Below the pieces are notes generated by a model. That model ran no database searches and was not told where the DNA came from. It saw only the letters and a list, made by a program, of their open reading frames with translations. A program made the position numbers and the translations under genes. From the NCBI GenBank assembly GCA_023137185.1, contig JAGLPS010000002.1, forward strand, positions 47,458-111,457: a DNA stretch of 64,000 bases, in the 5' to 3' direction. Below are positions 21,983 through 53,969 of the stretch, in pieces (the stretch's first letter is position 1; each line of letters opens with the position of its first letter). Origin of the DNA: Minisyncoccota bacterium (lineage in GTDB: Bacteria > Patescibacteriota > Minisyncoccia > Phycocordibacterales > JAGLPS01).

Positions 21983-22049
21983 AGCACTTCGGCGTAGTAC
22001 GCCTCAGTATTCTCACAAAATATAGTCGCTCTCGCAGAGCTTGTTATTT

Positions 22050-22471
22050 TGTGGAGGTGGGCGGAATCGAACCGCCGTGCAAAATAGGATTTCTCAACGA
22101 ATCTACAATACGTAGTTTATTTCAATCCGTCAGCTGACGGATTTAAGCACAAGGTGTAAGAAATAAACAAAACCACAATGTGCCGATTCCTAAAATTTTG
22201 TGCTGATACTGGAAAATATCAACATATAGTCCGGAAGATATTACACTTCGTTTGCGTTACCGAACATCACGCAAAGAAATGCCGCTCAGTCCGTCTTAGA
22301 CGGAGTAAGCGAAAGCGAAGTCGTTTTCCGTAAAGTACGGAGAAACTAGTGACTTTGCCCGTGCAAAAGTATTTTTAGCACGTATAGTTTCCTCAACATA
22401 TTAGGAGAAGTGAGGATTACTCCGTATTGCACATTGAAAATTCATTATTTTGTCTAGGCCGATCACCCCCC
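22050..22471 (-). ncRNA. ssrA: Transfer-messenger RNA (tmRNA)
   Basis: The minus strand starts GGGGGGTGATCGGCCTAGAC (tmRNA 5' consensus GGGG...GAC) and ends GGTTCGATTCCGCCCACCTCCAC (tRNA-like T-arm + acceptor); ~420 nt; directly downstream of smpB. Confidence 0.7.
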
Positions 22472-25988: not shown

Positions 25989-26001
25989 AAAAATTTTTCT
26001 G

Positions 26002-26075
26002 TGCGAGTACCAGGACTCGAACCTGGAACCGCGGAGGTATAAGCTCCGTGCTCTAACCAATTGAGCTATACTCGC
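26002..26075 (-). tRNA. tRNA-Ile, anticodon UAU (decodes AUA)
   Basis: The minus strand reads GCGAGTA-TA-GCTC..GAGC-A-CGGAG-CTTATAC-CTCCG-CGGTT-CCAGG-TTCGAGT-CCTGG-TACTCGC-A, a full cloverleaf; the anticodon loop CUUAUAC gives UAU. Confidence 0.8.
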
Positions 26076-31057: not shown

Positions 31058-32797
31058 TTATTCTATCTGTTTTCCGATATCTTTAATTTCTTTTTTTATA
31101 AAACTCTCTGCATCATCCAGGTCTTTTTTTAGATGCTTTATAACCTTTTCCTCCACCTTTGTGAGTTCTCTTTTGAACTTCGTTTTATCTAAAAATTCAA
31201 TTTGTTTCTGTATATCTTCTTTTAATAAATCAAATGCTTTACGCAAACTATCTTCGGCCTCTTTCACCTCTTTTTTTAATTTCTTTTTAAGCGCAGAGAA
31301 TCTATGCCAACCGAGCCAAACAAGCGAAAGCAAGGTAAATATTATTATAATCAACAAAATTATCAAAGATAGATAGCTCGTCAAAAGAGAAATAATAGTA
31401 TCTAAAAATCTGGACTTAACTGCAATAACATATTCATTAGTAAGATGACTTTTGGCGCCTCTAGAATCTGTTACTTCAGCCCAAATTCTGTAAACACCTC
31501 TATCTAGCACTTCTTTAGCAACAAACTCAAATTTACCTTCGTTGTTGCTTGAAATATCTTGAGCGATAGCTTCTTCCCCTTTTTTCTTTAACCAAATAGT
31601 TACGGTTGCATCAGGATAAGTTTCTCCCTTAATTATTAAAATATCTCCTTGTATCAATTTTGTTGGGCACTCTGTAATTTTAGGCGTTTTAATTGCAAGA
31701 ACAGTAAACTCTTCAGTTGCAGTTGTGTAATTACCAGCTTTATCATAGGCCTGCACGATAATACTCCGCTTGCCGAACGATTGTATCGGGAGAGTATATA
31801 AATTAGATGTCACTAATTGGCTCGCGATGAAATAGTCTCCTTCGCCTATTTTGACTTTGTAATGGTCAATGCCCGACATCAAATCAATTGTCTTGAATAG
31901 AACTTCTGGCTGCGGATTGTCGTCTTCTTTTCCGCCAGGAAATTTGATATCAAATGCTTTTGGCGGCTGTGTATCAATCAACACCTTGCGATGCGTAATG
32001 CCTCCCCAACCATATTTATTTTTGAAACAGACATGGAAATAATAAGTCCCGTCTAGCATCTCATCAATTTTCTTTTCAGAAATTACCGGCGTATACAGTA
32101 CGGTAGGAGTAGCAATAGGCAATTTTCCAATCAGCAATTTAACTGCCGTCACATCGCTAGGTACGTCCCAAGAAAACTCGGGGGTATTGTTCGGGTACCA
32201 TTTATTGGCATCCGAGTGGGTAGATGAAATAATATCTGGTGCTGTCGGCGCGCCACCTATTACAGTAGGTGTCGTCGCTTTGGGAGCTGTTTGTCCAGTA
32301 ACAGATGGATTCAAATCAAACTGCGCGCTAGACATAACAGATAAAATATTTGTTCCTTGTCCATCATTAGCCAATACCGAACCCGAATTAAAAGCCAAAG
32401 AAACATTACCTGCTGACTTCGCTTTAAAATTTATAGTAAGAATTTTACCTGTTTGCCCGATAAAACCGGGGTTTAGAACGATTCCCTCAAAAGTTATATT
32501 GCCTGCAATATTAGAAAAAGTTGGCTCTTGCACCCAAAGCGAGAAAATAGAATTGGCTTTAGAGACAGATGTCACTTGTAATTTATCCGAAGAAAAAAAT
32601 ACCACTCCAGAAGCCGCATTCATTGCTTGATCAGAACTAGAGACATAAACATTTACAGAAAATGTTTGTCCGACGAGGTGCGAGCCAGAAGAAGGAGAAA
32701 AATACAAAGAAGCGGCGTTTGCCTTACCGAAAATGCAAAATGTGAAAATTAAAATACTAAAAAAGAATATAAAATTTAATATTTTTTTCTTCTCCAT
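31058..32797 (-). CDS. Cell-surface protein: signal peptide, cohesin-like domain, Ig-like repeats, C-terminal TM anchor and a cytoplasmic coiled-coil tail
   Basis: The N-terminal domain ASLYFSPSSG...VNVYVSS...KLQVTSV...ILTINFKAKSAGNVSLAF...LANDGQGT fits the cohesin pattern; TM LIILLIIIIFTLLSLVWL, then a KE-rich coiled coil. Confidence 0.55.
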   Translation of the reverse strand: MEKKKILNFIFFFSILIFTFCIFGKANAASLYFSPSSGSHLVGQTFSVNVYVSSSDQAMNAASGVVFFSSDKLQVTSVSKANSIFSLWVQEPTFSNIAGNITFEGIVLNPGFIGQTGKILTINFKAKSAGNVSLAFNSGSVLANDGQGTNILSVMSSAQFDLNPSVTGQTAPKATTPTVIGGAPTAPDIISSTHSDANKWYPNNTPEFSWDVPSDVTAVKLLIGKLPIATPTVLYTPVISEKKIDEMLDGTYYFHVCFKNKYGWGGITHRKVLIDTQPPKAFDIKFPGGKEDDNPQPEVLFKTIDLMSGIDHYKVKIGEGDYFIASQLVTSNLYTLPIQSFGKRSIIVQAYDKAGNYTTATEEFTVLAIKTPKITECPTKLIQGDILIIKGETYPDATVTIWLKKKGEEAIAQDISSNNEGKFEFVAKEVLDRGVYRIWAEVTDSRGAKSHLTNEYVIAVKSRFLDTIISLLTSYLSLIILLIIIIFTLLSLVWLGWHRFSALKKKLKKEVKEAEDSLRKAFDLLKEDIQKQIEFLDKTKFKRELTKVEEKVIKHLKKDLDDAESFIKKEIKDIGKQIE

Positions 32798-33387
32798 AGT
32801 ATATAAATAAAAAGAAGTCCTGATATAATTATTATACCGTAAATAAATCCAATAGTCTTATCTGATACTGCTTCTCCCGAAATATCCACAGAAAAAGGTA
32901 TTAGGGAAACATCAGTTTCAGTACCCTTGCCGTCATTAAGCAACGCCCGCGTATTTTCCAAAATAATAGAACCATCACCGACACTCTTCGCTTTAAAAAC
33001 AAGAGTCAAAATTTTTCCAGATTCAATTTCTTTCTGAAAAGGATCTCTTACACCATCAAACCCGCCGGGGATTATCCCTGCAAAAATAATTTCTCCTGCT
33101 TTTTCCAATGACGGATCTTCAATCCACAAATTAATAACAGAATCCGTGTAACGAATATCAACCAAACTTAACTTATCTTTTGAAAAAATTACTCTTCCTT
33201 CAATTGCGTTTATCCGTTCTCCTTCTGTATCAAGCATAAGAAATACTTCCGCTTCGCCGTTTGTTTTTATATTTATGTGAGGCGGCGAAAAGTAGAAGAT
33301 AGCCGCATCGACAACTTGGGTCATAAATAATGAATCAAGAATTATGACCATACAAATAACAAATGCGAGTTTTTTCAAAAAATTCAT
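32776..33387 (-). CDS. Membrane-anchored cohesin-like domain protein (start taken at MNFLKK)
   Basis: AAIFYFSPPHINIK...KLSLVDIRYT...ILTLVFKAKSVGDGSIILENTRALLNDGKGT, paralogous to the N-terminal domain of 31058-32797; C-terminal TM helix. Confidence 0.5.
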   Translation of the reverse strand: MNFLKKLAFVICMVIILDSLFMTQVVDAAIFYFSPPHINIKTNGEAEVFLMLDTEGERINAIEGRVIFSKDKLSLVDIRYTDSVINLWIEDPSLEKAGEIIFAGIIPGGFDGVRDPFQKEIESGKILTLVFKAKSVGDGSIILENTRALLNDGKGTETDVSLIPFSVDISGEAVSDKTIGFIYGIIIISGLLFIYILWRRKKY

Positions 33388-33436
33388 AATTCGTGGTTTA
33401 TAATTCATAATCTGGCTAAAATTTGCAAAGCAAATT

Positions 33437-34840
33437 TTAGCCAGTCCAATAAAAAGCAAGAATGCTAAAATCTATCAGATCAACTTTGCCGTCGTTGTTT
33501 AAATCAACAGAAGCCAGCGGCGACGGTCTTTTATACCAATAAGCGACAATCGAAAAATCAACCAAATTTACTCTTTTATCGCTATTCGTATCTCCTTTGG
33601 CTGGAGAGACTGTCTTTTCTGGAAGCTCTGCCAGAATATTTCTATCTCCAACTTTAAAAGCAATAACTTTTGAAAAAGTCGTTATGTCATTATTTTTAGC
33701 TGCTTTAGCACGCGTACTGTGGTCACCGTACTCAATTTCTGATGTATCAAATTTGTAGAGCCATACACCTGATTCATCGGCAGTGATTCTTTTTACCAAT
33801 TCTTCGTTCGAATTTATAAAAACAGTAATATCAGCTTCTGGAACGCTTTGTCCAAGAATATTTAAATTATCTCCTCGTTTTACTTCCGTTTTTTCAACAA
33901 AAATTGTTGGAGGGATAAAAATACCACTAATAACGGTTGTTACACCACTTGTAACACTAATAGTAAATGTGTGAGTAATAGAACGATTTCCTTTTGAATT
34001 TTCGGCCCAAACACCAAAAGTATGAGTACCTGACGAAAGCCCAGAAAGCTGTATTTCAAAATTAGCATCAAGTCCGGCTTTGGTCGTCGCAGCAACTTGA
34101 GCGTTTCTCAAAATAGTAATATCGCTATCCGGATAAGCCCTACCTTTGAAAGTCACTTTTGTCACTGAAGTTATAATTCCGCCACCACCACCGCCACCAC
34201 CACAACTGCCACAGTCAGCGGAACATGTACTACAAGTTTCATTTCCGTTACAGCTTCCATCTCCACAACTTGCCGCAGGCGTAGGCGCATCGCCTATCAA
34301 AGAAAAAAAACTGAATTGTTGGGTTGTGGCAATAACAGTATTTAGTCCTGTATCAACAGCGTTATTGTCTAAACTAACCCAACTAGAACCATTCCAGCGG
34401 TGTGCCACCAATGTGCTTTCATCAATCCCACTAATGTCAGAATCTGTGTAATGAAAAGTTAAAGTTATAGGCTTATCAAACGAAGTAACAGAGCTAGAAT
34501 CGCTTGTTTTAGTAAACGATAAATCATAAAAAGTATTAGCAGCCAATTTGCCACTAGACAAAGGCCGGCTAGCAACAACCGCAACTTCATCAGTTGATTC
34601 CATTTGCATTCTTATTTCGTTACCAGTACTGAGAGAATCTTCTGGAAAGCTTATATCAAAACTTGTGTCGTTAGAATTTTCTAAGCTTTCGGAAAAGGAG
34701 TTTGAGGAATCAAAATCATGAGACTCTTCTGCATAAAGAACAGTGACATTTAAAACTGCTTCTCCTGAAAATAAAGGAGCCGGATAAACAAATAGTGTTA
34801 AAACAATACCCAAAACGCAAAAAACTTGAAAACCTTTCAT
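33437..34840 (-). CDS. Secreted dockerin-domain protein with Cys-rich and poly-Gly linkers
   Basis: C-terminal DTNSDKRVNLVDFSIVAYWY....VDLNNDGKVDLIDFSILAFYW is a duplicated dockerin type I calcium-binding repeat; CGDGSCNGNETCSTCSADCGSCGGGGGGGG linker; signal peptide. Confidence 0.6.
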   Translation of the reverse strand: MKGFQVFCVLGIVLTLFVYPAPLFSGEAVLNVTVLYAEESHDFDSSNSFSESLENSNDTSFDISFPEDSLSTGNEIRMQMESTDEVAVVASRPLSSGKLAANTFYDLSFTKTSDSSSVTSFDKPITLTFHYTDSDISGIDESTLVAHRWNGSSWVSLDNNAVDTGLNTVIATTQQFSFFSLIGDAPTPAASCGDGSCNGNETCSTCSADCGSCGGGGGGGGIITSVTKVTFKGRAYPDSDITILRNAQVAATTKAGLDANFEIQLSGLSSGTHTFGVWAENSKGNRSITHTFTISVTSGVTTVISGIFIPPTIFVEKTEVKRGDNLNILGQSVPEADITVFINSNEELVKRITADESGVWLYKFDTSEIEYGDHSTRAKAAKNNDITTFSKVIAFKVGDRNILAELPEKTVSPAKGDTNSDKRVNLVDFSIVAYWYKRPSPLASVDLNNDGKVDLIDFSILAFYWTG

Positions 34841-34848
34841 CCATTCTT

Positions 34849-35769
34849 TTACTTATTTATTGATATAGATATATTAAGTTTTTTCTTAAGAAATTTCAAA
34901 ACAAAGAAGAGGACAACAACACAAAGAATAAAACTTACCAAATACCAAAGTGGAAAAGCATAAAAAGTAACGGCTGTCGCAGTCAAAACATTGCCTTCAC
35001 CGTCCTTAATGTTTATTTCCGCTTTATAACGGCCCAAAAGCAAACTGGCAGTCTGCCAACTAGCGAATAAAGTGCGGACTCCGCCAGGAAGAACAATTTG
35101 CCCAGAAATTGGTATATTTGCTACTTCCTTACCAAAAATATTGGTAATTCTTATTGTTCCCTTTGGCTCAAAATGAACCGTACCTGTATTTTCAAAATCA
35201 ACATTAAAATTAACAGGTCCCTTTTGAACAAATTTTTCTGACGAAAAACCAAGCAAATCACCTTTTTGCAAATGACTACCAGGGATTGTTACAAAAATAA
35301 GCATTCCAAGTTCAGTGCCTATTTTTAACTGTCCTTCCTCAACTATTTTATTTGCTTTAAATAAAGCCACACCAAAATGACCGCCGGGCTCGGCGTTGTT
35401 GGGCGCGTTTATAGTATAGGTAACTTGTTTGCTTCCGTTTTCCGGAAGGATAAAAGTATAACCAGGATCAAGTGTTACCCAGTCTTTTACTGTTGTTACG
35501 CCTTCAGCTCGCTCTATAATCTGGATAGTTACGGTACCTTTTAACGGCACAAAGTCTTTTATGTTTACTTCAACCTTGACTGGCTCGTCACTACGATTGA
35601 TAACCTGGATTTTCCCAGAAACAGAATCACCGGGATTTATGGTGTGGGAAACCTTAACTGGCTCAATAGTCAGACCAACAGAAGCATCAACATGAAATAC
35701 ACTTAATCCAAAACAAACAAACAGTAAACCAAACACTGCCAAAAACTTAATTGGATAATCTAGTTTCAT
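34849..35769 (-). CDS. Surface protein with signal peptide, beta-sandwich domains (DUF916/CscA-like, tentative) and a C-terminal TM anchor
   Basis: Architecture of signal peptide + all-beta region + C-terminal hydrophobic helix + KKK. Confidence 0.4.
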   Translation of the reverse strand: MKLDYPIKFLAVFGLLFVCFGLSVFHVDASVGLTIEPVKVSHTINPGDSVSGKIQVINRSDEPVKVEVNIKDFVPLKGTVTIQIIERAEGVTTVKDWVTLDPGYTFILPENGSKQVTYTINAPNNAEPGGHFGVALFKANKIVEEGQLKIGTELGMLIFVTIPGSHLQKGDLLGFSSEKFVQKGPVNFNVDFENTGTVHFEPKGTIRITNIFGKEVANIPISGQIVLPGGVRTLFASWQTASLLLGRYKAEINIKDGEGNVLTATAVTFYAFPLWYLVSFILCVVVLFFVLKFLKKKLNISISINK

Positions 35770-35809
35770 TGAACTTTATAACTAAAGCAATCTGCAAAAC
35801 ACAATCTGG

Positions 35810-36517
35810 TTATGGGTTTACAACCGTTGTATAAGTTAAATCACCGGCATAATCACCACCCTGTTGAGTAGAGGCTACCTCCAAGTGATACAAAACAGTA
35901 TTAAGGTGGTCACTGGCGCTATAAGAACCAGTGCCCGCATTTCCGATCTGAGTAACATCGGTAGTACTAGCAATACCTGCCCACAAGCAATTAGCGTTAT
36001 CAGCATAAGAATCCTCCGTACCCCACCAAGTAGTTGCGAGAAAAGGTGTGCCATTTGTACTAGAAGCGCTCATTACTCTAAAAGCAAGAACATCACCACT
36101 ATTATCAAAAGAACCAATCTGCACAGCAGTTCCGGCAGAAGTTGTAGCAGCGCCTGCCGTCCATTGCGTCTGGTCGGTAATACCAACCGCAGCGTCACTG
36201 TCATTGTCCATCACTGTATTGCCAGTGGCCTGGTCATCTCCATAAAGCGTAACGTTCCACCCGGAAGTGTTATTGGTATTAACATTCAGTGTGCTTGTGG
36301 CAAAAACCACAGCACCTCCAGCAGTAATAGACGGGAAAGTATCAGTAGAAACGGTGGCGCTAATAGTTGATGATACAGTTGCGGTCAAACTGGCTCCGTC
36401 AGTTTCAGCGAAAGCAACATAGGCAATATAGAAACTGGAAAAGATAAGACTTATAATAAGCACTGACGACAACAGTAAATTCAAGTCTTCTTTTGTTGTT
36501 TTTGAATAAGTTAGCAT
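35810..36517 (-). CDS. WxL-like surface protein (tentative)
   Basis: SGWNVTLYGDD ... CLWAGIAS ... YAGDLTYTTVVNP C-terminal pattern resembles WxL domains; ~60% identical to the C-terminus of 36720-37937. Confidence 0.4.
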   Translation of the reverse strand: MLTYSKTTKEDLNLLLSSVLIISLIFSSFYIAYVAFAETDGASLTATVSSTISATVSTDTFPSITAGGAVVFATSTLNVNTNNTSGWNVTLYGDDQATGNTVMDNDSDAAVGITDQTQWTAGAATTSAGTAVQIGSFDNSGDVLAFRVMSASSTNGTPFLATTWWGTEDSYADNANCLWAGIASTTDVTQIGNAGTGSYSASDHLNTVLYHLEVASTQQGGDYAGDLTYTTVVNP

Positions 36518-36719
36518 ATTGTTAAATTGTTAAACTAAAAATAAATTCCCCAACCGAATTTGGGTTCAAAAATTGTATTAAATTTTCCAATAAATTTAGT
36601 GGTGTGTATGTGATTAAACATAGATAAAATCTAACTACGCAAAGTTAAAATTATACTATTATTTTATAATTATAATAAAATTATTTAAAAGTTGCAAAAG
36701 ATATCCACAAGTATCGATA

Positions 36720-37937
36720 TCAGGGGTTAATAATAGTAGTAAAAGTAATATCGCCCGAATAAGACCCTGATTGTTGGGTTGTTGGGACTTTTAAATAATA
36801 ATTAACTGTGTTTAGCGCGCTTCCTCCGCCAGAATCATCACTGGAATTACCAATCTGAGTAACATTGGTTGAACTAGCAACCCCAGCCCATAAAGTATTG
36901 GCATTATCAGCGTAATCATCCACGCTGCCCCACCAATCTGACGCAAGAAAAGAAGCAGTGCCACTTGCTGTCATTACACGAAAAGCAAGAACATCATTAC
37001 TGTTATCTAAAGAAGATATACGCACAGCATTTCCGGCAGACGATGTAGCTGCGCCGGCAGTCCATTCTAACTGATCAGTAATTCCTACAGAAGCGTTTGT
37101 AGTTAAATCCATTACAGTATTAGAGGGTCCTTGGTCGTTTCCGTAAATAGTCACATTCCATCCACTGGCAGAGTTTGTGTTCACATCTATAGTGCTGGTA
37201 GCGAAAACGGCAACCCCCGGAGTAACAATCGGAAAAGTATCAGTAGAAACAACCGCAGTAAGGGTTTCAGCTGGGGGGCTATAGTGCACGGTTATTTGTA
37301 TTTGGTCCACCCAAATATCAGCCTTAGCGCCAACTGCCATAGCCGCAAAAACCAACCCAAATCCACTGCTTTCTATTTCAGCTTCTGTCCATGTTGTGTT
37401 CCATTTCTCGTCAACCCCGCCATAAGTTGCAGCAGTAACAGAAGCTGGCCAGACAGTTGTTGTGTCTGCATTATCATCACTGCCAGCAACTGGTGTTCCA
37501 GCGCTTTTTGTTAGCTGAAGATGGTAATCTTTTCCATCGGCTCCACCTAAACTTCTTCTCGAAATTGATACTACAATTCCGTCAATGGTTGAATTAGTTG
37601 GAAGGTCAAAACCAAAATTAGAAAGGACTATCGTATAGCTTTTATTGCCGTCATCAAAACTGGGAGACGTAATATAAATTTCACTGCCATCCGCTGATAG
37701 CAAATCTGCTTGAACATCCGCACCCTCAAAAGCCCAAGCGATATCATCGCAATCAGCATAACCCCCGCCGTCTTTTGTGGACGCAGCAGTCCCCGCAGTC
37801 TTAGCCTGAGTCTCAGCAAAAACTCGTTCAGTTTTTGGTGGAATTGACGGATTCTTCCAAATCTGCGGCCACCCGGAAAAAATCCAGGCAAGAATCAAAA
37901 TAAAAACTAATAAAAATTTTCCAGATTTTCCAAACAT
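36720..37937 (-). CDS. Larger surface protein with the same WxL-like C-terminal domain and a distinct N-terminal domain
   Basis: SGWNVTIYGNDQ ... TLWAGVAS ... YSGDITFTTIINP; N-terminal TM/signal. Confidence 0.4.
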   Translation of the reverse strand: MFGKSGKFLLVFILILAWIFSGWPQIWKNPSIPPKTERVFAETQAKTAGTAASTKDGGGYADCDDIAWAFEGADVQADLLSADGSEIYITSPSFDDGNKSYTIVLSNFGFDLPTNSTIDGIVVSISRRSLGGADGKDYHLQLTKSAGTPVAGSDDNADTTTVWPASVTAATYGGVDEKWNTTWTEAEIESSGFGLVFAAMAVGAKADIWVDQIQITVHYSPPAETLTAVVSTDTFPIVTPGVAVFATSTIDVNTNSASGWNVTIYGNDQGPSNTVMDLTTNASVGITDQLEWTAGAATSSAGNAVRISSLDNSNDVLAFRVMTASGTASFLASDWWGSVDDYADNANTLWAGVASSTNVTQIGNSSDDSGGGSALNTVNYYLKVPTTQQSGSYSGDITFTTIINP

Positions 37938-38456
37938 TACTTTTATTATACAAAAAAACACCGAAACGAAAAACTAAAAAACTTGTAAATTGCCTACAAA
38001 TTGCTAACTAGCTCATTCTTTACTCTATGAGCTACGACGGTTAGATATTTTGGTAAGTTTTACAACAATCTCACATTCTTAAGAATGTGAGATTGTTGTA
38101 TTAAAATCCTCGAGCGTGCACTTGTTGTGGACTTGAAAAACCTCGGTGTAGCGCGCAAATGGCATTCGGTGTCGCTTTGCGACGCTCCACATCTCGCCGT
38201 TTCGGGCGAAAGTGCAACTTGGCGGAGGAGGTGGGATTCGGTCACAAATAATTTTCTGCTGAAAATTTTCGCGACTCTTACAGAGTCTGTACACCTTTTG
38301 GACAATTCAGAAATTGTCTCAAAAGGTCTTGCGAAATGCTCCCAGCATTTCTCACCCGACTCGGCGCCGTCGCGCCTCCGTCTTTCGAATCCCTCTCTCA
38401 CAACCAAAGCTGCTAATTTTTGATACCTATATAAACGGTATCAAAATTATCAGTGC

Positions 38457-39333: not shown

Positions 39334-40452
39334 GTGACTAATTTCTTTAAAGGATTTTTTGGAGGGAAAAAGGAAAGCGTTATTGGAATTGATATCGGAA
39401 CTTCTGCTATCAAAGTTGTGCAAATCTCACGCAAGGGACAGAAGGTTGTTCTTGACACGTATGGGGCTCTTGCACTCGGACCCTACGTCGATATGGAAAT
39501 TGGGAGGGCAACGAATCTCTCTGTCGAGAAAACAGTTGAAGCGCTTGGAGATGTATTGAAAGAGGCGAATATAACAACACGACAATGCGGCATTGCGATT
39601 CCTTTTGCCTCTAGTTTAATGACCGTTATTGAAATGCCTGATGTAAGCGTCGAGCAACTGGTCGGAATGATTCCTATCGAAGCGCGAAAATATATTCCAG
39701 TTCCTATCTCCGAAGTAATGCTTGACTGGTCAGTCATTCCTTCAGATGAATATACCGCAACAGGAAAAGAAACTACGGATGTTTCAAAAACTACTGAGAC
39801 TGTAAAAAAGAAAAAAGATGTGCTTATTGTTGCGATTCACAAAGAGATGGTCGCAAAATATCAAGATATTGTAAAAAAAACGGATCTCAACGCGAGTTTT
39901 TTTGAAATTGAATTATTTAGCACTATGAGAAGCGTGCTTGAGCAGGAAAATGTTCCTGTCGGGGTTTTGGATATGGGAGCGGCATCTACTAAACTTTATG
40001 TGATTGAACGAGGAGCTGTTAGAGTTTCTCATACAGTGAATCGTGGTTCCCAGGACGTTACCCTTGCGATTTCGAAATCTCTCGGGATCCCCGTCAATCA
40101 GGCGGAAGTAATAAAGAGGGACCCTAATTTGGGCGGACACAGTGATGATAAAGGAGTATTGGAAGCAGTATCGCTAGTCACAGACCATATTTTTTCAGAA
40201 GCAAGTCGCGTCTTTTTTAGTTACCAGAAGAAACATCAGAAGAATATAAGCAAAATTATTCTTGTGGGTGGGGGTATTGCGCTCGCGGGACTCACAGACA
40301 AGGCTCGTAAAGCGCTTAAGATAGAAGTAGAAAAAGGCGACCCTTTTTCAAAAGTAGAGGCCCCCGCTTTTTTGGACGAGGTTCTTAAGAAAGTGGGTCC
40401 AGAATTTGCCGTTGCGGTTGGGGTTGCCCTCCGTCGTCTGCAAGAAGTTTGA
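39334..40452 (+). CDS. pilM: Type IV pilus assembly ATPase-like protein PilM
   Basis: VIGIDIGTSAIKVV actin-like fold; 372 aa; precedes pilN/pilO. Confidence 0.85.
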   Translation: MTNFFKGFFGGKKESVIGIDIGTSAIKVVQISRKGQKVVLDTYGALALGPYVDMEIGRATNLSVEKTVEALGDVLKEANITTRQCGIAIPFASSLMTVIEMPDVSVEQLVGMIPIEARKYIPVPISEVMLDWSVIPSDEYTATGKETTDVSKTTETVKKKKDVLIVAIHKEMVAKYQDIVKKTDLNASFFEIELFSTMRSVLEQENVPVGVLDMGAASTKLYVIERGAVRVSHTVNRGSQDVTLAISKSLGIPVNQAEVIKRDPNLGGHSDDKGVLEAVSLVTDHIFSEASRVFFSYQKKHQKNISKIILVGGGIALAGLTDKARKALKIEVEKGDPFSKVEAPAFLDEVLKKVGPEFAVAVGVALRRLQEV

Positions 40453-40519
40453 CTCTGTAGTAGATTTTGGCATTGCCCGCGGGGCATATTAAGATGTTAT
40501 GCCAAAATTCACTACGGGG
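40453..40519. mobile_element. MITE-like nested-hairpin element (TIR CTCTGTAGTAGATTTTGGCAT / ATGCCAAAATTCACTACGGGG) between pilM and pilN
   Basis: 21-bp inverted ends, inner hairpin TGCCCCGCGGGGCA-like; followed by an extended -10 TGGTATAAT at ~40541. Confidence 0.5.
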
Positions 40520-40560
40520 TTTGATACTCCTCAAAATATCGTGGTATAATTTCAAAAGAA

Positions 40561-41172
40561 ATGGATACAAAATTTCAAACATCTTTTATTCCGAAAAAGC
40601 CCATAATTCCTTCGGGTAAAGCAGAGCACAATGTGCATCCGACGAACTTTTTTTCTTTGCTTACAAGTGTGTTGCTTGTAATTACTCTTCTTGCCGCTGC
40701 CGGTGTATTTGCATATCAGGGGTATCTTTCAAATAGGATTAAAACGCTAGATACGCAGCTTGCCCAGATGGAAGAAACCTTTGAATCAGAACTTATTACC
40801 GAGCTTTCTCATATTGATAGCCGTCTTAAATCCGCAAAAAGTATTCTTGAAAATCATCTTTCAACCGTATCTCTGTTTGAACTTCTGGAAGCAATTACTC
40901 TTCAAGATGTTCAATTTACGAATTTTGATTATACGTTAGGGTCAAATGGTATTACTGTTGAAATGAGCGGTAAGGCAAGAAATTACAGCACACTTGTACT
41001 GCAATCTGACGAATTTGTAAATAGTAAAGATGTCCGGAGTATCGTGTTTTCCAATCTCGACCTTGATTCGACCGGTAACGTGCTTTTTAGGCTTGCGCTA
41101 CAAATTAATAAGACCGGATTTCTTTATAAAAACAGCATTCAGACGCTCTCGTTTGAGGGGTTTCCTTTTTAA
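40561..41172 (+). CDS. pilN: PilN-like pilus assembly protein (bitopic)
   Basis: Cytoplasmic N-terminus, one TM helix, coiled-coil periplasmic domain; position after pilM. Confidence 0.6.
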   Translation: MDTKFQTSFIPKKPIIPSGKAEHNVHPTNFFSLLTSVLLVITLLAAAGVFAYQGYLSNRIKTLDTQLAQMEETFESELITELSHIDSRLKSAKSILENHLSTVSLFELLEAITLQDVQFTNFDYTLGSNGITVEMSGKARNYSTLVLQSDEFVNSKDVRSIVFSNLDLDSTGNVLFRLALQINKTGFLYKNSIQTLSFEGFPF

Positions 41173-41178
41173 CGCATT

Positions 41179-41730
41179 ATGAATCGTACAGCACCAATCT
41201 TTCTAATAATTCTTGCCGTAGCCATTTTCTATGTCTATATTGACCCCGCGTATGCGGATATACGACAGCTCCAAGTTGAAGAAAAGGCATATGCGGAAGC
41301 GATTGAAAGTGTTCGGGCAGTTGAACAGAAACGTAATGAACTTATATTAAAATATAATTCTTTTTCAAGCGTTGATTTAGATCGTCTTGATGAAATGATT
41401 CCGAGTACAATCGACAATATGCGTCTTGTCGCCGAAATTAACGGAATTGCGCAGCAGTACGATATTGAAATCAGACGAGTGCGAGTAGCGGAATATCGGG
41501 AGGGAAATATTCCACGGGAAGGGACAGTTACGGAGGGGATTCCAGATGTGCATAAAATGCTTACAATGAGTTTCACTTTTGACGCGCCTTATGATTCTTT
41601 TATTAAATTTATGAATGACTTGGAGCAAAGCCTGCGAATTCTTGATTTTTCCTCAATATCTTTCAGGGTTGAATCAGATACACAAGAAGCGACTTATAAT
41701 GTGACTTTACGGACATACTGGCTTCCATAA
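41179..41730 (+). CDS. pilO: PilO-like pilus assembly protein
   Basis: N-terminal TM + coiled coil; position in the locus. Confidence 0.5.
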   Translation: MNRTAPIFLIILAVAIFYVYIDPAYADIRQLQVEEKAYAEAIESVRAVEQKRNELILKYNSFSSVDLDRLDEMIPSTIDNMRLVAEINGIAQQYDIEIRRVRVAEYREGNIPREGTVTEGIPDVHKMLTMSFTFDAPYDSFIKFMNDLEQSLRILDFSSISFRVESDTQEATYNVTLRTYWLP

Positions 41731-41739
41731 ATATCTATT

Positions 41740-42027
41740 ATGAAAGAGAATTTTTTACAAAAAAATAGAGGAACAATAACACTTATACTGATTGCGGCGG
41801 TAATCTTTTGGGTGTATACAGTATTTTTCAGAGGCGCTCCAAAAGATTTCACTCAGCCGACAAACCTTATCGGGAAAAGCGCTATTGAAATGCTTAACAG
41901 GCTCAATTCAATTACCCTTGATGGTTCTGTTTTTTCTTCTCCTGCTTTTCATGAACTCAAAGATTTTGAATTAGTACTCCCGGAACAACCTGTTGGTCGC
42001 AGTAATCCGTTTGCGCCTGTGCGATAG
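41740..42027 (+). CDS. Small bitopic membrane protein (possible PilP-like)
   Basis: TM helix only; operon context. Confidence 0.3.
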   Translation: MKENFLQKNRGTITLILIAAVIFWVYTVFFRGAPKDFTQPTNLIGKSAIEMLNRLNSITLDGSVFSSPAFHELKDFELVLPEQPVGRSNPFAPVR

Positions 42028-42053
42028 AAAATCCTGAGGTCTTTTAAAAGTAT

Positions 42054-43802
42054 ATGGGAATTTTAGACATCCTAGCGAGAAGAAATATTGTTCGTGAAGA
42101 AGATATTCCAGTTATCAGAAGAAAAGCTGGAAACTCCCAAGAAAAGCTTGAGGTGTTGCTTAAAGAGATTGGAGTTAGTAATAAGGACATTCTTGAAAGC
42201 AAGGGAGAGTATTTTGATATTCCGGTTAAGGAAGTAAATGATGATGAAATTTCCAATGAAATTCTTGAATATATTCCGGAAGAATCGGCGCTTCATTATC
42301 ACTTTGTTTCTATTGGTTTTTCCAACGGGGTGCTTGAAGTAGGTATTACTGACCCTAACAATATTGAAGCGCGGGACGCGCTCACTTTTATCTCCGCAAA
42401 AATAAATCTGCCGTATAAGATTTTTCTTATTTCTGAAGAGGATTTTAAACACGTTGTGGGTTTGTATAAAGGACTTTCTCGCGATGTGACTGAAGCGGTG
42501 TCGGAATTTGAAGGAGGAAAAGATTCCCAAGGCGCAAAGCGGAAAGTACATACAAAAGAACCCGAACAAGAAAAGGTGAAAAAAATACGAAAGGAAGAGG
42601 ATGAGGTTGAAGTGAGAACCATAGAAGATGCTCCTGCTAAAAAAATTGTTTCAACAATTTTAAGATATGCCGCTGAAGGAAACACGTCTGATGTGCACAT
42701 TGAACAAATGAGAGAAGTTGTCCGGGTGCGTTTTCGGGTTGATGGAATTTTGAACACTAGTCTTGTACTTCCGCGAAGGGTGTCCGATGCAGTAATTGGA
42801 TATATAAAAGTTCAGGCGAATTTACGACTGGAAGAACGTCGCAAACCGCAAGACGGTCGTTTTTCCGCTCTTATTGAAGACAAAAAAATAGATTTTCGCG
42901 TATCTACTTTCCCAACTCATTATGGAGAAAAGGTTGTGATGAGAATTTTGGACCAGAGTAAGGGAATAAAAAAGCTTGACGACCTTGGTCTAAGCAAAAA
43001 GAATCTCTCCACAATTCGCAGGGCAATACAACGCCCTTTCGGGCTTATTCTTATTTCTGGTCCGACAGGTTCTGGTAAAACGACGACTCTCTACGCGATG
43101 CTCAACGAAATAGATAAGGAAACGCAAAATGTATTAAGTCTCGAGGATCCAATTGAATACAACATTGAAGGAATCAATCAATCTCAGGTGCGTCCGGAGA
43201 TAAACTACACTTTCGCGAATGGTTTACGAACCGCTCTACGTCAGGATCCCGATATCATTATGGTTGGCGAGATTCGCGATAAAGAAACTGCCCAACTTGC
43301 TATTCAGGCGGCACTTACTGGGCATCTCGTGTTTTCAACTATACACACTAATAATGCGATAGGAACTGTTCCGCGTCTCGTGGATATGGGAGTCGACCCT
43401 TATCTTATTAGTCCAACCCTTATTTTAGCCATTGCCCAGCGACTTGTCCGTACCTTGTGTCCGGGGGCGGGAAAACCAATGTTGGTTGAAGGGAGTATTG
43501 CGATGATGATAGAAAAACAGTTCGCGGACCTTCCTGAAAAATTCAAAAAGGACATTCCTCTTGGTAAATATGTATACGGGGTGTCTCCAACTCCAGAATG
43601 CCCAACAGGACTGCGTGGAAGAGTAGCCGCGATGGAAGTATTTGAGATAGACAAACACATAGAAGAGTTGATTCTCAAAAGTCCAACTGAAGTAGATATT
43701 TGGAAAGCGGCAAGAGAAAATGGAATGTTGACTATGAAAGAGGATGCACTTATTAAAGCATTTGAAAGAAAGGTTTCTTTTGAAGAAGTCAACGGTCTCT
43801 AG
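42054..43802 (+). CDS. pilB: Type IV pilus assembly ATPase PilB/GspE
   Basis: N-terminal GSPII domain, Walker A SGPTGSGKTTT, Asp box, His box, tetracysteine CP..C motif. Confidence 0.9.
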   Translation: MGILDILARRNIVREEDIPVIRRKAGNSQEKLEVLLKEIGVSNKDILESKGEYFDIPVKEVNDDEISNEILEYIPEESALHYHFVSIGFSNGVLEVGITDPNNIEARDALTFISAKINLPYKIFLISEEDFKHVVGLYKGLSRDVTEAVSEFEGGKDSQGAKRKVHTKEPEQEKVKKIRKEEDEVEVRTIEDAPAKKIVSTILRYAAEGNTSDVHIEQMREVVRVRFRVDGILNTSLVLPRRVSDAVIGYIKVQANLRLEERRKPQDGRFSALIEDKKIDFRVSTFPTHYGEKVVMRILDQSKGIKKLDDLGLSKKNLSTIRRAIQRPFGLILISGPTGSGKTTTLYAMLNEIDKETQNVLSLEDPIEYNIEGINQSQVRPEINYTFANGLRTALRQDPDIIMVGEIRDKETAQLAIQAALTGHLVFSTIHTNNAIGTVPRLVDMGVDPYLISPTLILAIAQRLVRTLCPGAGKPMLVEGSIAMMIEKQFADLPEKFKKDIPLGKYVYGVSPTPECPTGLRGRVAAMEVFEIDKHIEELILKSPTEVDIWKAARENGMLTMKEDALIKAFERKVSFEEVNGL

Positions 43803-43866
43803 AGGTGTTGAACGTATATAAAAATGTTACTATAGCAATATCTCTACACAGAGGAATAATAAAGGT

Positions 43867-44259
43867 ATGACCGAGCAAAAATATAAAATGCTAATTGTTG
43901 ATGATGACCGTTTTCTTACCGATATGTATTCTCACAAGTTCGAAAAAAGCGGTTTTAATGTGGTGGTTGCGGACAATTCCGAAAAAGCTCTTTCAGTTCT
44001 AAAAGAGGATCCCAAACCCGATTTGTTACTTTTAGATGTTATCTTACCTGGCATGACTGGAATAGAGCTTCTCAAAAAAATCAGAGAAGAAAAACTAGTT
44101 ACAGACGCTATAGTGATTATGCTATCCAATCAAGGAAGCAAAGAAGATATAAACGAAGTGAAGGACTTAGATATTGATTGTTATATTATTAAGGCGACAA
44201 CGATTCCATCGGAAGTTGTTGAAAAAGTGCAAAAAGTAATTGACACACACAAGAAATAA
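43867..44259 (+). CDS. Receiver-domain response regulator (PilH/PilG-like)
   Basis: MLIVDDD...DLLLLDVILPGMTGIELL. Confidence 0.8.
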   Translation: MTEQKYKMLIVDDDRFLTDMYSHKFEKSGFNVVVADNSEKALSVLKEDPKPDLLLLDVILPGMTGIELLKKIREEKLVTDAIVIMLSNQGSKEDINEVKDLDIDCYIIKATTIPSEVVEKVQKVIDTHKK

Positions 44260-44261
44260 TT

Positions 44262-45323
44262 ATGGATTATCAACGCGAACTTGAAGATTTATTCAATGCG
44301 GTTATTGCTGAGGAAAGTTCCGATCTCCATTTTTCAGAAGGTCGGCACCCGACTATCCGTTCTGCGGGTTTTCTTATACCCCTTGTAAAAAAAGATGTCC
44401 TCAAAAAAGAAGATCTTACGGGTTTTACCAAAGCGATTCTGACGCCAGATCAGCAACAGGAACTTGTCACAAAAAAAGAGATTGATTTTGCGTATATGTA
44501 TGATGATAAAGCGCGATTTCGTGGCAACATCTTTTATCAGCAAGGTAGAATAAGTATTGCGCTTCGCCTTATTCCCAGAAATATCAGAACGTTTGCGGAA
44601 CTCAACCTCCCTGAAGCCCTTGATATGTTTTCTCGCAAGAAACAAGGATTTTTTCTAGTTGTTGGTCCTACGGGACAGGGGAAAAGCACTACACTAGCTT
44701 CAATGGTTGAGCTTATTAATAATGAACGACTTGAGCACATTATTACCATTGAGGACCCTATTGAGTATCTTTTTGAACAAAAAAAATCAATTATTGACCA
44801 ACGGGAAATAAAATCGGATACTCGCAGTTTTCACAGCGCTCTGCACAGTGTGTTCCGTCAGGATGTTGATGTTGTAATGATTGGGGAAATGCGCGATCCG
44901 GAAACAATAGGTACAGCTGTAACAGCGGCTGAAACAGGACATTTGGTGTTTTCCACACTTCATACGAACAGTGCCGCGCAAACAATTGACCGTATTATTG
45001 ATTCATTTCCCGCAGGCCAGCAAGACCAAACCAGGTTGCAGCTTTCAAGCAGCCTTATTGGAATTTTTTCTCAGCGACTTATTCCGCGCATCTCTGGAGG
45101 ACTTATTCCCGCTTACGAGCTTCTTATAAGCAACAATGCTGTTTCTAACCTTATTCGGGAACGCAGGACTCATGAAATTAATACAGTAATAGAAACAAGT
45201 TCTCAGGAAGGAATGGTTGATCTTAACCGTTCTCTTTCAGATTTAGTACGCAGAGGAGAAATTACTGTTGAAAATGCGTATCTGCACACGTTGAATCAAA
45301 AAACGCTTGAACGAATGCTTTAA
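44262..45323 (+). CDS. pilT: Twitching-motility retraction ATPase PilT
   Basis: Walker A GPTGQGKSTT; AIRNLIRE-like motif NLIRERRTHEI. Confidence 0.9.
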   Translation: MDYQRELEDLFNAVIAEESSDLHFSEGRHPTIRSAGFLIPLVKKDVLKKEDLTGFTKAILTPDQQQELVTKKEIDFAYMYDDKARFRGNIFYQQGRISIALRLIPRNIRTFAELNLPEALDMFSRKKQGFFLVVGPTGQGKSTTLASMVELINNERLEHIITIEDPIEYLFEQKKSIIDQREIKSDTRSFHSALHSVFRQDVDVVMIGEMRDPETIGTAVTAAETGHLVFSTLHTNSAAQTIDRIIDSFPAGQQDQTRLQLSSSLIGIFSQRLIPRISGGLIPAYELLISNNAVSNLIRERRTHEINTVIETSSQEGMVDLNRSLSDLVRRGEITVENAYLHTLNQKTLERML

Positions 45324-45328
45324 CACAT

Positions 45329-46531
45329 ATGATTTTTAATTATAAAGGGGTTAATAAATTAGGAGAGGGAAAACGAGGAACTGTTGAGGCGGTTAATATC
45401 GATGCTGCAATTGATACTCTCCAGGCTCAAGGACTGACACTTTCCTCCATTGTTCCTATAGAAGAGAGAGTGTCCATTGACTATCTTTCGTTTCTTCGTC
45501 AAGTATCTACTAAAGATGTAGTCATTTTGTCTCGGCAGATGGCAACCCTCTTTCAGTCAAAAGTGCCGGCGCTTAGAGTATTTAAACTGCTTGCGGCAGA
45601 AACTGAAAATGCCCTCTTGCGTGAAGCGCTTGATGAAATTGCGAATGACCTTCAGGCAGGAAGCTCAATCTCGAAAGCGCTATCTCGTCATCCAAAGATT
45701 TTCTCCGAATTTTATGTGAATATGGTTAAAGCGGGGGAAGAGTCGGGGCGTCTTGATGAAATTTTCTTATATTTAGCGGATTACCTTGACCGAACGTTTG
45801 AAATAACCTCGAAAGCAAAAGGAGCTTTTGTATACCCTTTGTTTGTCGTTGGAGTTTTTGTCGGAGTAGTTTCTTTGATGCTTACGTTAATTATCCCCAA
45901 GATTACTTCTATTCTTATTGAAGCGAATACAGAACTGCCAATTTATACAAAGATAGTTATCGGTACAAGCGATTTTTTAATTAATTACGGCTTACTTTTT
46001 GTTATAGGTATCGGGCTTGCTCTTGTCGTGTTGGGGCGTTATGTTCGTACTCCCGATGGCGCTCTTTCTTTCGATTCGTTTAAATTAAGCGTACCGTTGG
46101 TGGGAGGCTTGTATAAGAAGCTTTATCTTTCTCGTATTGCCGATAATCTCAATACAATGATTATTTCAGGCATACCTATACTGCGAGCTATTGAAATTAC
46201 CAGCTCTGTGGTGGGGAGTCCTGTATATAAACAAATTCTTGACGAAAGCCTTATTGCGGTAAAAGGAGGAAATACACTTTCTGAATCCTTGTCAGGACAT
46301 CCTGAAATGCCAGGAATTATGATTCAGATGATGAAAGTGGGCGAGGAGACTGGAGAGTTAGGCAGCATTTTAAAAACGCTCTCACGATTTTATCAGCGGG
46401 AAGTAACAACTACCGTGGATACGCTTGTTGAACTTATTGAACCGATAATGATTGTCGTTCTTGCCACAGGGGTCGGTGTTTTACTTGCTGCGGTACTTCT
46501 TCCTATTTACGACGTTGCTGCTGGATTTTAA
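45329..46531 (+). CDS. pilC: Type IV pilus platform protein PilC (GspF family)
   Basis: Two T2SSF repeats, 3-4 TM; 400 aa. Confidence 0.9.
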   Translation: MIFNYKGVNKLGEGKRGTVEAVNIDAAIDTLQAQGLTLSSIVPIEERVSIDYLSFLRQVSTKDVVILSRQMATLFQSKVPALRVFKLLAAETENALLREALDEIANDLQAGSSISKALSRHPKIFSEFYVNMVKAGEESGRLDEIFLYLADYLDRTFEITSKAKGAFVYPLFVVGVFVGVVSLMLTLIIPKITSILIEANTELPIYTKIVIGTSDFLINYGLLFVIGIGLALVVLGRYVRTPDGALSFDSFKLSVPLVGGLYKKLYLSRIADNLNTMIISGIPILRAIEITSSVVGSPVYKQILDESLIAVKGGNTLSESLSGHPEMPGIMIQMMKVGEETGELGSILKTLSRFYQREVTTTVDTLVELIEPIMIVVLATGVGVLLAAVLLPIYDVAAGF

Positions 46532-46794
46532 CCCCCACGCCAACTTTGTCATTGTCACAGTATTTTCAAAAATAAAGTAATTGTAAAAAACACAGCAATA
46601 TCTTCGGTGTTATGAATACATCGGCTTAGGCGACAAAATACTATGCCAAAGTTGGTGTGGGAGTAAAGTTGTCAACAAAAGACTGTTTGAATTTTCTCTC
46701 ATACGTTATAATAAGAACACTAAGCTTTTTATTAAAAAAGCGGCTCAATTAATGAGTCGGTCGAATGTAAAGTTATTAAGTTATTTTTAAAAGC

Positions 46795-47277
46795 ATGCTT
46801 AAAAAAAATAAAGGTTTCACCCTTATTGAATTGTTAGTCGTTATTGCTATTATCGGTATTCTTTCGTCTGTTGTTTTGGCGAGTCTAAATACCGCTAGAG
46901 TAAAAGGATCAGATGCTGCGATAAAAGCGAATCTTTCAAGTATTCGCGCGCAAGCAGAAATTCTCTACGATACGCATGGAGCATACGGAGTTGACAGCAC
47001 ACCGACAGTGTTTGCTGAAGGAGTGTGTGCGGCAACAGCCGACACTCTTTTTGCTGACTCTACTATCTCTCAACAGATTACTGCGGCAGGAAACGCAAGT
47101 ACTGGCGGTGGAATAGGGGTAGGCCGATGTGTGGTTACCACATCAGGAGCTGCGTGGGCAGTTTCAGTTCCTCTCAAGAGCGTTTCTACGAATGCATGGT
47201 GTGTTGACAGTGGCGGAGCATCGAAGGAGGTTACAGCCGGAGATGCAGGAATTACTGCGGCAGGTGCGTGTAACTAG
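46795..47277 (+). CDS. pilA: Major type IV pilin (short leader)
   Basis: MLKKNKG|FTLIELLVVIAIIGIL; C-terminal Cys pair; followed by a strong terminator. Confidence 0.85.
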   Translation: MLKKNKGFTLIELLVVIAIIGILSSVVLASLNTARVKGSDAAIKANLSSIRAQAEILYDTHGAYGVDSTPTVFAEGVCAATADTLFADSTISQQITAAGNASTGGGIGVGRCVVTTSGAAWAVSVPLKSVSTNAWCVDSGGASKEVTAGDAGITAAGACN

Positions 47278-47296
47278 AAATTCTTTTAAACCAAAA

Positions 47297-47322
47297 AACC
47301 ACCCGCGCGGGTGGTTTTTTGT
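47297..47322 (+). terminator. Rho-independent terminator after pilA
   Basis: CCACCCGCGCGGGTGG followed by TTTTTT. Confidence 0.7.
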
Positions 47323-47349
47323 TGTTTGCTTACATTGTATAATATTAAT

Positions 47350-48875: not shown

Positions 48876-48893
48876 TAAACACCATTTGATATA

Positions 48894-49502: not shown

Positions 49503-49514
49503 TTTTAGAAATTT

Positions 49515-50065: not shown

Positions 50066-50069
<4 letters not shown>
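49515..50069 (+). CDS. Minor pilin / pseudopilin
   Basis: MSTARKKG|FTLVETLVALAIVV. Confidence 0.7.

Positions 50070-53969
<3,900 letters not shown>

Follow-up and report, generated by a model that had tools for sequence, protein, structure and literature searches.

The closest described counterparts of a six-gene cluster (G1 to G6) from a candidate phyla radiation (CPR) bacterium are: (i) the Pam pili of other CPR bacteria, (ii) the WxL/Csc surface systems of Firmicutes, (iii) chaperone-usher pili, (iv) the cohesin-dockerin anchoring of cellulosomes, and (v) the usher-less, donor-strand-complemented fibers of monoderm bacteria and archaea. The cluster lies on a stretch of 64,000 nucleotides (hereafter the window) of contig JAGLPS010000002.1 from a Minisyncoccota bacterium (assembly GCA_023137185.1), a metagenome-assembled genome whose deposited proteins are labelled 'Candidatus Pacebacteria bacterium' (locus tags KAR00_005xx). 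The six genes are read here as encoding an usher-less surface pilus that would be chaperone-assembled by donor-strand exchange, would be a divergent CPR relative of the Pam pilus and would be tethered to the cell by a cohesin-dockerin bond. The probability of this reading is put at about one half.

The Pam pilus is described from filaments of Candidatus Mycosynbacter amalyticus, in which cryo-electron microscopy (cryo-EM) identified the pilins PamA and PamB (10.64898/2026.03.03.709456). Both pilins have a nine-strand N-terminal β-sandwich, a donated linker strand and a truncated immunoglobulin (Ig)-like C-terminal domain. Also encoded in the Pam operon are PamC and PamD, chaperones of the PapD/FimC type that end in a transmembrane helix, a single-domain tip protein (PamT), and PamR, a proposed pilus terminator and anchor with an N-terminal strand, two fibronectin type III (FnIII) domains and a transmembrane helix (10.64898/2026.03.03.709456). 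PamE is a further pilin of the system. The system is placed mainly in Saccharimonadia and Microgenomatia, and neither dockerin, cohesin nor WxL is mentioned in the preprint. The WxL clusters consist of a small WxL protein, a large WxL protein and WxLIP, which has the architecture DUF916-DUF3324-transmembrane segment (Hassan et al. 2023, PMC10599100). A WxLIP in complex with a long WxL protein is available as PDB 9i25.

All six open reading frames (ORFs) of the cluster are co-oriented between positions 31058 and 37961 of the window, as the initial annotation had outlined. In the order of transcription they are:

36720 to 37961, minus strand, G1, ORF of 413 amino acids (aa)
36518 to 36719, minus strand, AT-rich intergenic gap of 202 bp between G1 and G2
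35810 to 36517, minus strand, G2, ORF of 235 aa
34849 to 35769, minus strand, G3, ORF of 306 aa
33437 to 34840, minus strand, G4, ORF of 467 aa
32776 to 33459, minus strand, G5, ORF of 227 aa
31058 to 32797, minus strand, G6, ORF of 579 aa

From G2 to G6, neighboring genes overlap or are separated by gaps of 40 bp or less. The true start of G1 is probably near 37937, as the deposited G1 protein has 405 aa, and that of G5 is probably near 33408, as Met18 of the ORF is the start conserved in its orthologs. All six proteins are predicted to be exported via the Sec pathway, and none of the six translations ends in an LPXTG sorting signal; thus, a CscD-like LPXTG protein is not found among them. 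In the gap between G1 and G2, a promoter-like sigma-70 match (TTGCAA, a 17-nt spacer and TATAAT; 36669 to 36698, minus strand), which is a consensus match only, would fit a separate, strong expression of the small protein G2. Scans of promoters and terminators gave site counts no higher than in shuffled sequence.

The six genes appear to form one conserved module. A survey of one genome per GTDB species, in which the ORFs of each locus were searched with pieces of the window proteins, returned 47 loci, all of them from CPR bacteria. Downstream counts cover the 33 species-level loci that extend 4.5 kb or more past G3, and upstream counts cover the 30 loci with enough sequence. A dockerin gene follows G3 in 31 of the 33 loci, and the full set of a dockerin gene and two cohesin-like genes is present in 29. 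Upstream of G3, a gene for a small pilin-like protein occurs in every locus counted (30/30) and one for a large protein with the same C-terminal domain in 22/30. All six gene types recur in unchanged order on contigs of Kaiserbacteria and Collierbacteria, and the order is kept in a far more divergent relative of higher GC content (L052). In L017, the dockerin gene and the cohesin-like genes are duplicated together with no pilin gene in the duplicate. In L028 and L042, the pilin and chaperone genes occur without the dockerin and cohesin genes.

Several loci show further rearrangements. Two identical small pilin genes stand on either side of G3 in L042 (9196 to 11656), and in L026 (642 to 6090) the small pilin gene is preceded by a dockerin gene and by another G3-like gene, which is divergent (E 1e-27). 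Insertions of genes of the selfish-element type, which leave the module order intact, are seen in L001/L002 (6819 to 7073 and 13379 to 13750) and L014 (12884 to 14164). Among the orthologous modules, a GIY-YIG endonuclease gene is inserted between the large and small pilin genes, and a gene for a 23S-rRNA-IVP-type protein lies between the dockerin and cohesin genes; in L014, the ORF called for the G5 ortholog appears to include the latter as a fusion.

G1 and G2 are paralogs with a common C-terminal domain of about 190 aa (58% identity, E 4e-75), in agreement with the initial annotation. Their parts are:

residues ~40 to 230 of G1, minus strand, variable N-terminal domain, preceded by a signal peptide
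36723 to 37271, minus strand, pilin-like C-terminal domain of G1 (residues 231 to 413), 58% identical to that of G2
~36368 to 36394, minus strand, N-terminal extension 'ASLTATVSS' of G2 (residues 42 to 50), after the signal peptide

Apart from its signal peptide, G2 is no more than a strand of ~10 residues joined to the C-terminal domain. The database homologs of the domain are all unannotated CPR proteins, which comprise a class of about 230 aa and larger classes. Of the 59 small-class sequences in alignment A1, 50 match the NCBIfam model NF058581 (CPR_Pam_pilin_C) at E<=10 (best 5.9e-7) and three match NF058579 (PamT), all below the curated cutoffs (55 bits for NF058581). The weak NF058581 match of G1 covers profile positions 16 to 143 of 148 and lies exactly over the domain common with G2, and G2 itself has no match to this model. 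An exhaustive profile search with the pilin-like domain yielded 240 representative clusters at E<=1e-3. Of 60 more distant clusters, 13 match the Pam pilin model (E<=0.01) and four match PamT (best 3.3e-9), again below cutoff, while a few match the fimbrial families TafC and BcfA.

The domain is present in one copy per protein. Wherever the match extends to the last position of the profile (224 proteins), the domain lies within four residues of the C-terminus. About half of the proteins that bear the domain are small, and the others have N-terminal regions of up to ~3300 aa that include beta-propellers, lectins of the concanavalin A (ConA)-like type, fn3 domains and PARCEL repeats. In a structure search, the model of G2 resembles pilins of the donor-strand-exchange type and has a truncated Ig-like domain; its top fold matches include the TasA fiber, TLP-2, CanX and DUF1102 tubes.

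The common domain had been called WxL-like in the initial annotation, based on a GW.VT ... TYT pattern. The family does have a GW(N/H)(V/I)T motif followed by a C-terminal '(L/I)TYT(A/T)' without Trp; this GW(N/H)(V/I)T ... LTYT pattern resembles the WxL motifs without matching them, and the dual W-x-L motif is absent from the alignment. Pfam WxL (PF13731) is matched by neither G1 nor G2 and by none of the 119 family members (59 of A1 and 60 distant), and the solved WxL chain is absent from the fold-match lists of the G2 model. Membership of G1 and G2 in the WxL family was dropped as no PF13731 match was found in these 119 members, and the matches to the Pam pilin models stand in its place. 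Sequence searches of the PDB with G1, G3, G4 and G6 and with the family profiles A1, A2, A3 and A5 recovered no pilin, WxL, WxLIP or cohesin, and yielded only a weak match to the dockerin 2y3n and generic matches to Ig domains.

The N-terminal strand of G2 recurs in the family and in G4. In the small pilins, the signal peptide leads directly into an 'x(T/S)L(T/S)VTV' motif, and 'LTFTxSTDxF', the strand that opens the fold, comes next. In the large G1-type proteins, the variable N-terminal domain instead runs directly into 'SLTFxVSTxxF', without the extra strand. The mature N-terminus of the G4 orthologs has the same type of strand (e.g., TTLTVTVVY, STLTITVTQ and VNLTVTISD; AVLNVTVLY in the window). 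A position-anchored heuristic, which looks for an alternating strand motif no more than 22 residues past the hydrophobic region of the signal peptide, gave the following fractions of proteins with the motif:

small pilins, 77%
G4 orthologs, 74%
G1-type proteins, 9%
G3 orthologs, 10%
G5/G6 orthologs, 17%
other ORFs with such a hydrophobic region, 18%

A strict position-specific scoring matrix (PSSM) of nine residues separates the groups in part, with a median of 3.1 for G4 orthologs (other ORFs, -5.1) and a score of 8 or above in only 28% of the G4 orthologs. The G2 and G4 strands of one genome share 3.18 identities of nine vs 2.72 in permuted pairs (p=0.0013, from a permutation that ignores phylogeny).

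G3 is a chaperone-like membrane protein. In its AlphaFold2 model (predicted local distance difference test, pLDDT, of 81.6), a signal peptide is followed by a pair of β-sandwich domains and, at the C-terminus, by a transmembrane helix, which bears out the earlier description of G3 as a signal peptide, β-domains and a C-terminal anchor:

34879 to 34950, minus strand, transmembrane helix of G3 (residues 274 to 297), from the AlphaFold2 model

The best PDB matches of the model are the Enterococcus faecium WxLIP structures 9i1y and 9i25 (Foldseek, E ~2e-10, at template modelling (TM) scores of only ~0.35 to 0.41), followed by RbmA and then by the chaperones of chaperone-usher systems CfaA, YadV, FimC, Caf1M, CsuC and DraB (E 1e-9 to 1e-8). 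Pfam WxLIP_PGBD/DUF916 (PF06030) has sub-threshold matches in 20 of 42 G3 orthologs (best 2.7e-5). The DUF916 call of the initial annotation thus finds support in the fold and, below threshold, in the family, and G3 and WxLIP look clearly alike as partner proteins. No DUF3324 match is listed for G3, and an NCBIfam scan of the G3 family gave weak matches to DUF11 repeats only and no Pam-named chaperone model. CspA-like matches in G3 were set aside as short chance matches within the β-sandwich. Even between CPR lineages, many of which have G3, the identity of its orthologs exceeds 50%.

G4 carries a genuine dockerin. The Dockerin_1 (PF00404) match at residues 415 to 462 exceeds the gathering score (32.3 vs 22.9 bits), and the sequence itself shows both 12-residue loops for Ca binding, DTNSDKRVNLVD and DLNNDGKVDLID, so the dockerin that had been assigned to the third gene of the cluster by coordinate is confirmed. 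G4 also weakly matches the cellulosomal dockerin 2y3n. Two of its features are placed as follows:

34733 to 34759, minus strand, N-terminal strand 'AVLNVTVLY' of G4 (residues 28 to 36), after the signal peptide
33455 to 33598, minus strand, dockerin of G4 (residues 415 to 462), Pfam Dockerin_1 above the gathering score

After the signal peptide and the N-terminal strand, the protein continues with a variable region, then a Cys-rich motif and its linker of eight glycines, two Ig-like domains (with matches to Pfam Big_13 and Big_6) and the dockerin. The N-terminal strand, the two Ig-like domains and the dockerin form the conserved core, the region between is variable, and some orthologs have merely 180 to 215 aa. 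Pfam reveals no evident binding or catalytic module in G4 besides the dockerin and the Ig-like domains. The Cys-rich motif CGDGSCNGNETCSTCSADCGSC, followed by the eight glycines, occupies residues ~190 to 222 (34177 to 34273 of the window, minus strand) before the Ig-like domains, and this Cys-rich and poly-Gly element is found again in most G4 orthologs.

G5 and G6 are the cohesin-like membrane proteins, each with a transmembrane helix that is followed by basic residues. Their features are:

32920 to 33312, minus strand, cohesin-like domain of G5 (residues ~50 to 180), with a signal peptide before and a C-terminal transmembrane helix after
32333 to 32674, minus strand, cohesin-like domain of G6 (residues 42 to 155), a sub-threshold match to Pfam Cohesin
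31307 to 31390, minus strand, transmembrane helix of G6 (residues ~470 to 497)

G6 has a signal peptide, the cohesin-like domain, Ig-like domains that include a Big_13 above its gathering score (32.5 bits), the transmembrane helix and a charged tail. Among the G6 orthologs, Cohesin (PF00963) is matched in 23 of 31 (best 1.8e-9) and Big_13 in 25 of 31. By BLASTP, G5 and G6 are paralogs in their N-terminal domains (2e-20), and 6 of 32 G5 orthologs match Cohesin. The cohesin-like domains that the initial annotation had assigned to both proteins thus find support at the level of the family. The cytoplasmic tail of G6 (residues ~498 to 579, 31058 to 31306, minus strand) is a highly charged predicted coiled coil; its conservation (E to 1e-35) hints at a cytoplasmic partner or at oligomerization of the anchor. 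The G5 of the window is a short form: most orthologs (alignment A4) have another extracellular domain of ~100 aa (motif 'PPExF…QDKxSGI..YEV…SPY.L.DQ'), the second, that it is missing, and a similar short form is noted in L024, L037 and L041.

The domain content, paralogy, fold resemblances, gene order and common N-terminal motif are observed. Polymerization, the order of subunits, the activity of the chaperone and cohesin-dockerin binding are inferred, and the fiber would be arranged as follows. G3, kept in the membrane by its C-terminal helix, would complete the open β-sandwich of newly exported pilin domains. G1, a variable binding domain fused to a pilin domain, would be the tip adhesin and would start the fiber because it has no free N-terminal strand; it would accept but not donate a strand. 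G2 would be the shaft subunit that both donates and accepts, polymerizing by the placement of its 'xLTxTV' extension in the groove of the preceding subunit. G4, with a pilin-type N-terminal strand but no acceptor domain, would be a donor-only terminator that caps the proximal end of the fiber. G5 and G6 are predicted type-I membrane proteins whose cohesin-like domains would bind the Ca-dependent dockerin of G4 and thereby tether the fiber to the cell; the signs of such a pairing are the co-occurrence of the genes in 29 of 33 loci and their joint duplication in L017. In function, PamR would thus be divided into a soluble adaptor (G4) and membrane sockets (G5/G6).

The likeness to the Pam system extends to the CPR superphylum, the predicted Sec export of the proteins and a weak but consistent C-terminal similarity to NF058581 and PamT. 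G3 is PapD/FimC-like with a C-terminal transmembrane helix, as are PamC and PamD, and G4, like PamR, has an N-terminal strand and two Ig-like domains. By contrast, G4 ends in a dockerin rather than in the transmembrane helix of PamR, and the cluster has no PamR-type gene. There is one chaperone in place of two, and two cohesin-like membrane proteins are added. G2 is built without the two-domain plan of PamA/PamB, G1 is without the extra strand motif, and most database records of relatives of the cluster are from Parcubacteria-group lineages.

The comparison with chaperone-usher pili (Fim, Pap, Csu, CFA/I and Caf1) rests on the likeness of G3 to PapD-like chaperones and of G2 to pilins, and on the proposed logic of tip, shaft and terminator, with a tip without and a shaft with the N-terminal extension. 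The proposed pilus differs in that the chaperone is membrane-anchored, there is no outer membrane, sequence similarity is not detectable, and anchoring would be by cohesin and dockerin; no usher is found among the six genes or their conserved neighbors. TasA/TapA and the archaeal fibers (the cannulae CanA/CanX and bundling pili) are likewise usher-less, donor-strand-complemented fibers of monoderm or archaeal cells, but have no sequence relationship to the cluster; TasA uses TapA, and the cannulae polymerize without a chaperone.

A number of observations weigh against the pilus. No filament has been observed for the organism or its clade. Every match to the Pam models and to DUF916 is under the curated cutoff: G1 reaches only 11.2 bits (E 0.28) on NF058581, and the G3 of the window scores 16.4 bits on PF06030, for which the gathering score is 27.3. 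The fold matches of G2 are moderate, and G2 is missing the N-terminal β-sandwich that defines PamA and PamB. On the side of the tether, the G6 of the window falls slightly short of the Pfam Cohesin gathering score (22.6 vs 24.1 bits), the G5 of the window has no Pfam match of any type, the profile of the G6 family finds no solved cohesin in the PDB by sequence, and 4 of the 33 loci are without part of the dockerin-cohesin set. The strand motif was defined post hoc with a crude signal-peptide heuristic, and alternating Thr/Val strands are common among secreted β-proteins; the motif tests are supportive rather than decisive, since they were designed after the data were seen and are not corrected for phylogeny. 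Finally, WxL proteins, to whose clusters the layout of G1 to G3 is similar, are described as peptidoglycan-bound surface proteins and not as polymers (PMC10599100).

The first of three alternatives is considered unlikely. Here, the cluster would encode a non-polymerizing complex of the WxL/Csc type, in which G1 and G2 are single molecules stabilized by strand insertion from G3, and G4 is docked separately on G5/G6 to form an adhesion patch. The best structural match of G3 is indeed WxLIP, including the WxLIP-WxL complex 9i25, and DUF916 matches its orthologs below threshold (20/42). A small protein that is the C-terminal domain only, a large variable protein and a two-Ig transmembrane protein make up G1 to G3 as they do the WxL/Csc clusters (PMC10599100; PDB 9i1y and 9i25), of which small, large and WxLIP-like is the commonest type (PMC10599100), and in both systems the common domain is always C-terminal. 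Strand insertion into WxL by WxLIP has, moreover, already been proposed, whereas a polymer is here deduced rather than observed. The Csc-like complex of the initial annotation is therefore kept in its layout of a small protein, a large protein and a two-Ig anchor, but not in its WxL domain. Several findings speak for a pilus instead. Members of the C-terminal domain family match the models for PamT and the Pam pilin but in no case Pfam WxL, and Pam pilins form filaments by cryo-EM (10.64898/2026.03.03.709456). The N-terminal strand is present in the small pilin and G4 and absent from the large protein, as an ordered polymer would require and a 1:1 complex would not need. A further difference from the WxL/Csc set is the presence of the dockerin and cohesin genes.

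A second alternative, also improbable, is that two independent systems are co-located: a Pam/WxL-like system of G1 to G3 and, unlinked to it, a separate cohesin-dockerin adhesin of G4 on G5/G6. Cohesin and dockerin domains are widespread outside cellulosomes, and the two halves of the cluster do part company in a few loci, with pilin and chaperone genes alone in L028 and L042 and the dockerin-cohesin set of L017 duplicated without a pilin gene. This separation is set against a near-invariant order with tight or overlapping spacing in 29 of 33 species, including the distant branch. The mature N-terminus of G4 bears the donor-strand motif of the pilin type, and beyond the dockerin G4 offers only Ig-like domains, with no obvious module by which an independent adhesin would bind or catalyze.

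The third, a cellulosome-like scaffold in which cohesin anchors recruit dockerin-tagged enzymes for polymer degradation, is very unlikely despite the genuine dockerin and the cohesin-like domains, because Pfam and NCBIfam find no catalytic domain or carbohydrate-binding module (CBM) in G1 to G6 and the 64-kb window has a single dockerin ORF (G4), and each anchor has one cohesin-like domain and the genes are tightly coupled to those of the pilin and chaperone.

In cellulosomes, subunits bear a type I dockerin and the anchoring scaffoldins bear cohesins. The pilus reading does keep one element of cellulosome anchoring, namely a non-covalent tether between a tandem F-hand dockerin with canonical Ca loops (G4) and cohesin-like domains on cell-bound proteins (G5/G6). 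The differences are that G5 and G6 are predicted type-I membrane proteins with a single cohesin each, rather than scaffoldins linked by S-layer homology (SLH) domains or sortase, and that the proposed cargo is the terminator of a fiber. The cellulosome-style scaffold of the initial annotation was thus not sustained: enzyme subunits are absent, and the cohesin-dockerin pair more likely anchors a polymerized fiber than a multi-protein scaffold.

The module adjoins a complete type IV pilus cluster (39334 to 51900, plus strand), from which it is separated only by a ComF-like gene and a tRNA-Ser gene. This cluster encodes PilM, two small membrane proteins, a PilB-like T2SSE ATPase, a response regulator, a PilT-like ATPase, PilC/T2SSF, N-methyl pilins and an A24 prepilin peptidase. 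A functional link between the two was considered and rejected, as the adjacency is absent from the Kaiserbacteria and Collierbacteria loci. Between tRNA-Ser(GCT) and G1, a non-coding region of ~300 nt (38105 to 38410, either strand) is relatively GC-rich and hairpin-rich, gives a far better fold than its shuffled counterparts (z of -4.2 for the minus and -5.4 for the plus strand) and has several GNRA-type loops; it has no Rfam match at E<=1 and may be an undescribed structured RNA. Next to it, a perfect palindromic hairpin of ~20 bp (…ACAACAATCTCACATTCTTAAGAATGTGAGATTGTTGT…; 38058 to 38103), located ~100 nt upstream of where G1 starts, may serve as an operator or as a bidirectional terminator. 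Further away, the window has a transfer-messenger RNA (tmRNA) gene (22049 to 22470, minus strand; full-length Rfam RF00023 match, 110.8 bits) and a gene for a tRNA-Ile with a TAT anticodon (26001 to 26075, minus strand). The TAT-anticodon tRNA-Ile is uncommon in bacteria, in which AUA is usually decoded by a lysidine-modified CAU tRNA.

The module is made of familiar components: surface systems of the Pam/WxL type and pairs of cohesin and dockerin. In the searchable literature, the conserved combination of the two is not described, nor are the minimal pilin of extension and C-terminal domain, the single chaperone or the broad distribution of the module among CPR lineages, and no paper was found on cohesin or dockerin in CPR pili or on WxL proteins as donor-strand polymers. 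A broader claim is more tentative than the pilus itself and is somewhat doubtful as a whole: that a donor-strand pilus held proximally by a cohesin-dockerin bond, and not by an usher, a sortase or a transmembrane segment, is widespread in CPR, and that the link of G3 to WxLIP unites Pam-type pili and Firmicute WxL/Csc systems in one monoderm superfamily of the 'chaperone without usher' type.

CPR bacteria (Patescibacteria) make up a very large and mostly uncultured share of bacterial diversity and live attached to other microbes; to our knowledge, little is established of their means of attachment beyond type IV pili and Pam pili. A role of the module in attachment to host cells is plausible. 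The contacts proposed are all between small soluble domains, which would be accessible as recombinant proteins without cultivation. Cohesin-dockerin pairing, otherwise known from cellulose-degrading machines, would gain a new structural role as the anchor of a fiber. The module would also carry Pam-like fibers into lineages for which few are reported (10.64898/2026.03.03.709456), and it suggests an evolutionary bridge from this CPR system to the WxL/WxLIP surface systems, themselves poorly understood, that are found in enterococci, listeriae and lactobacilli. If the superfamily is real, WxL proteins may themselves be pilin-like subunits.

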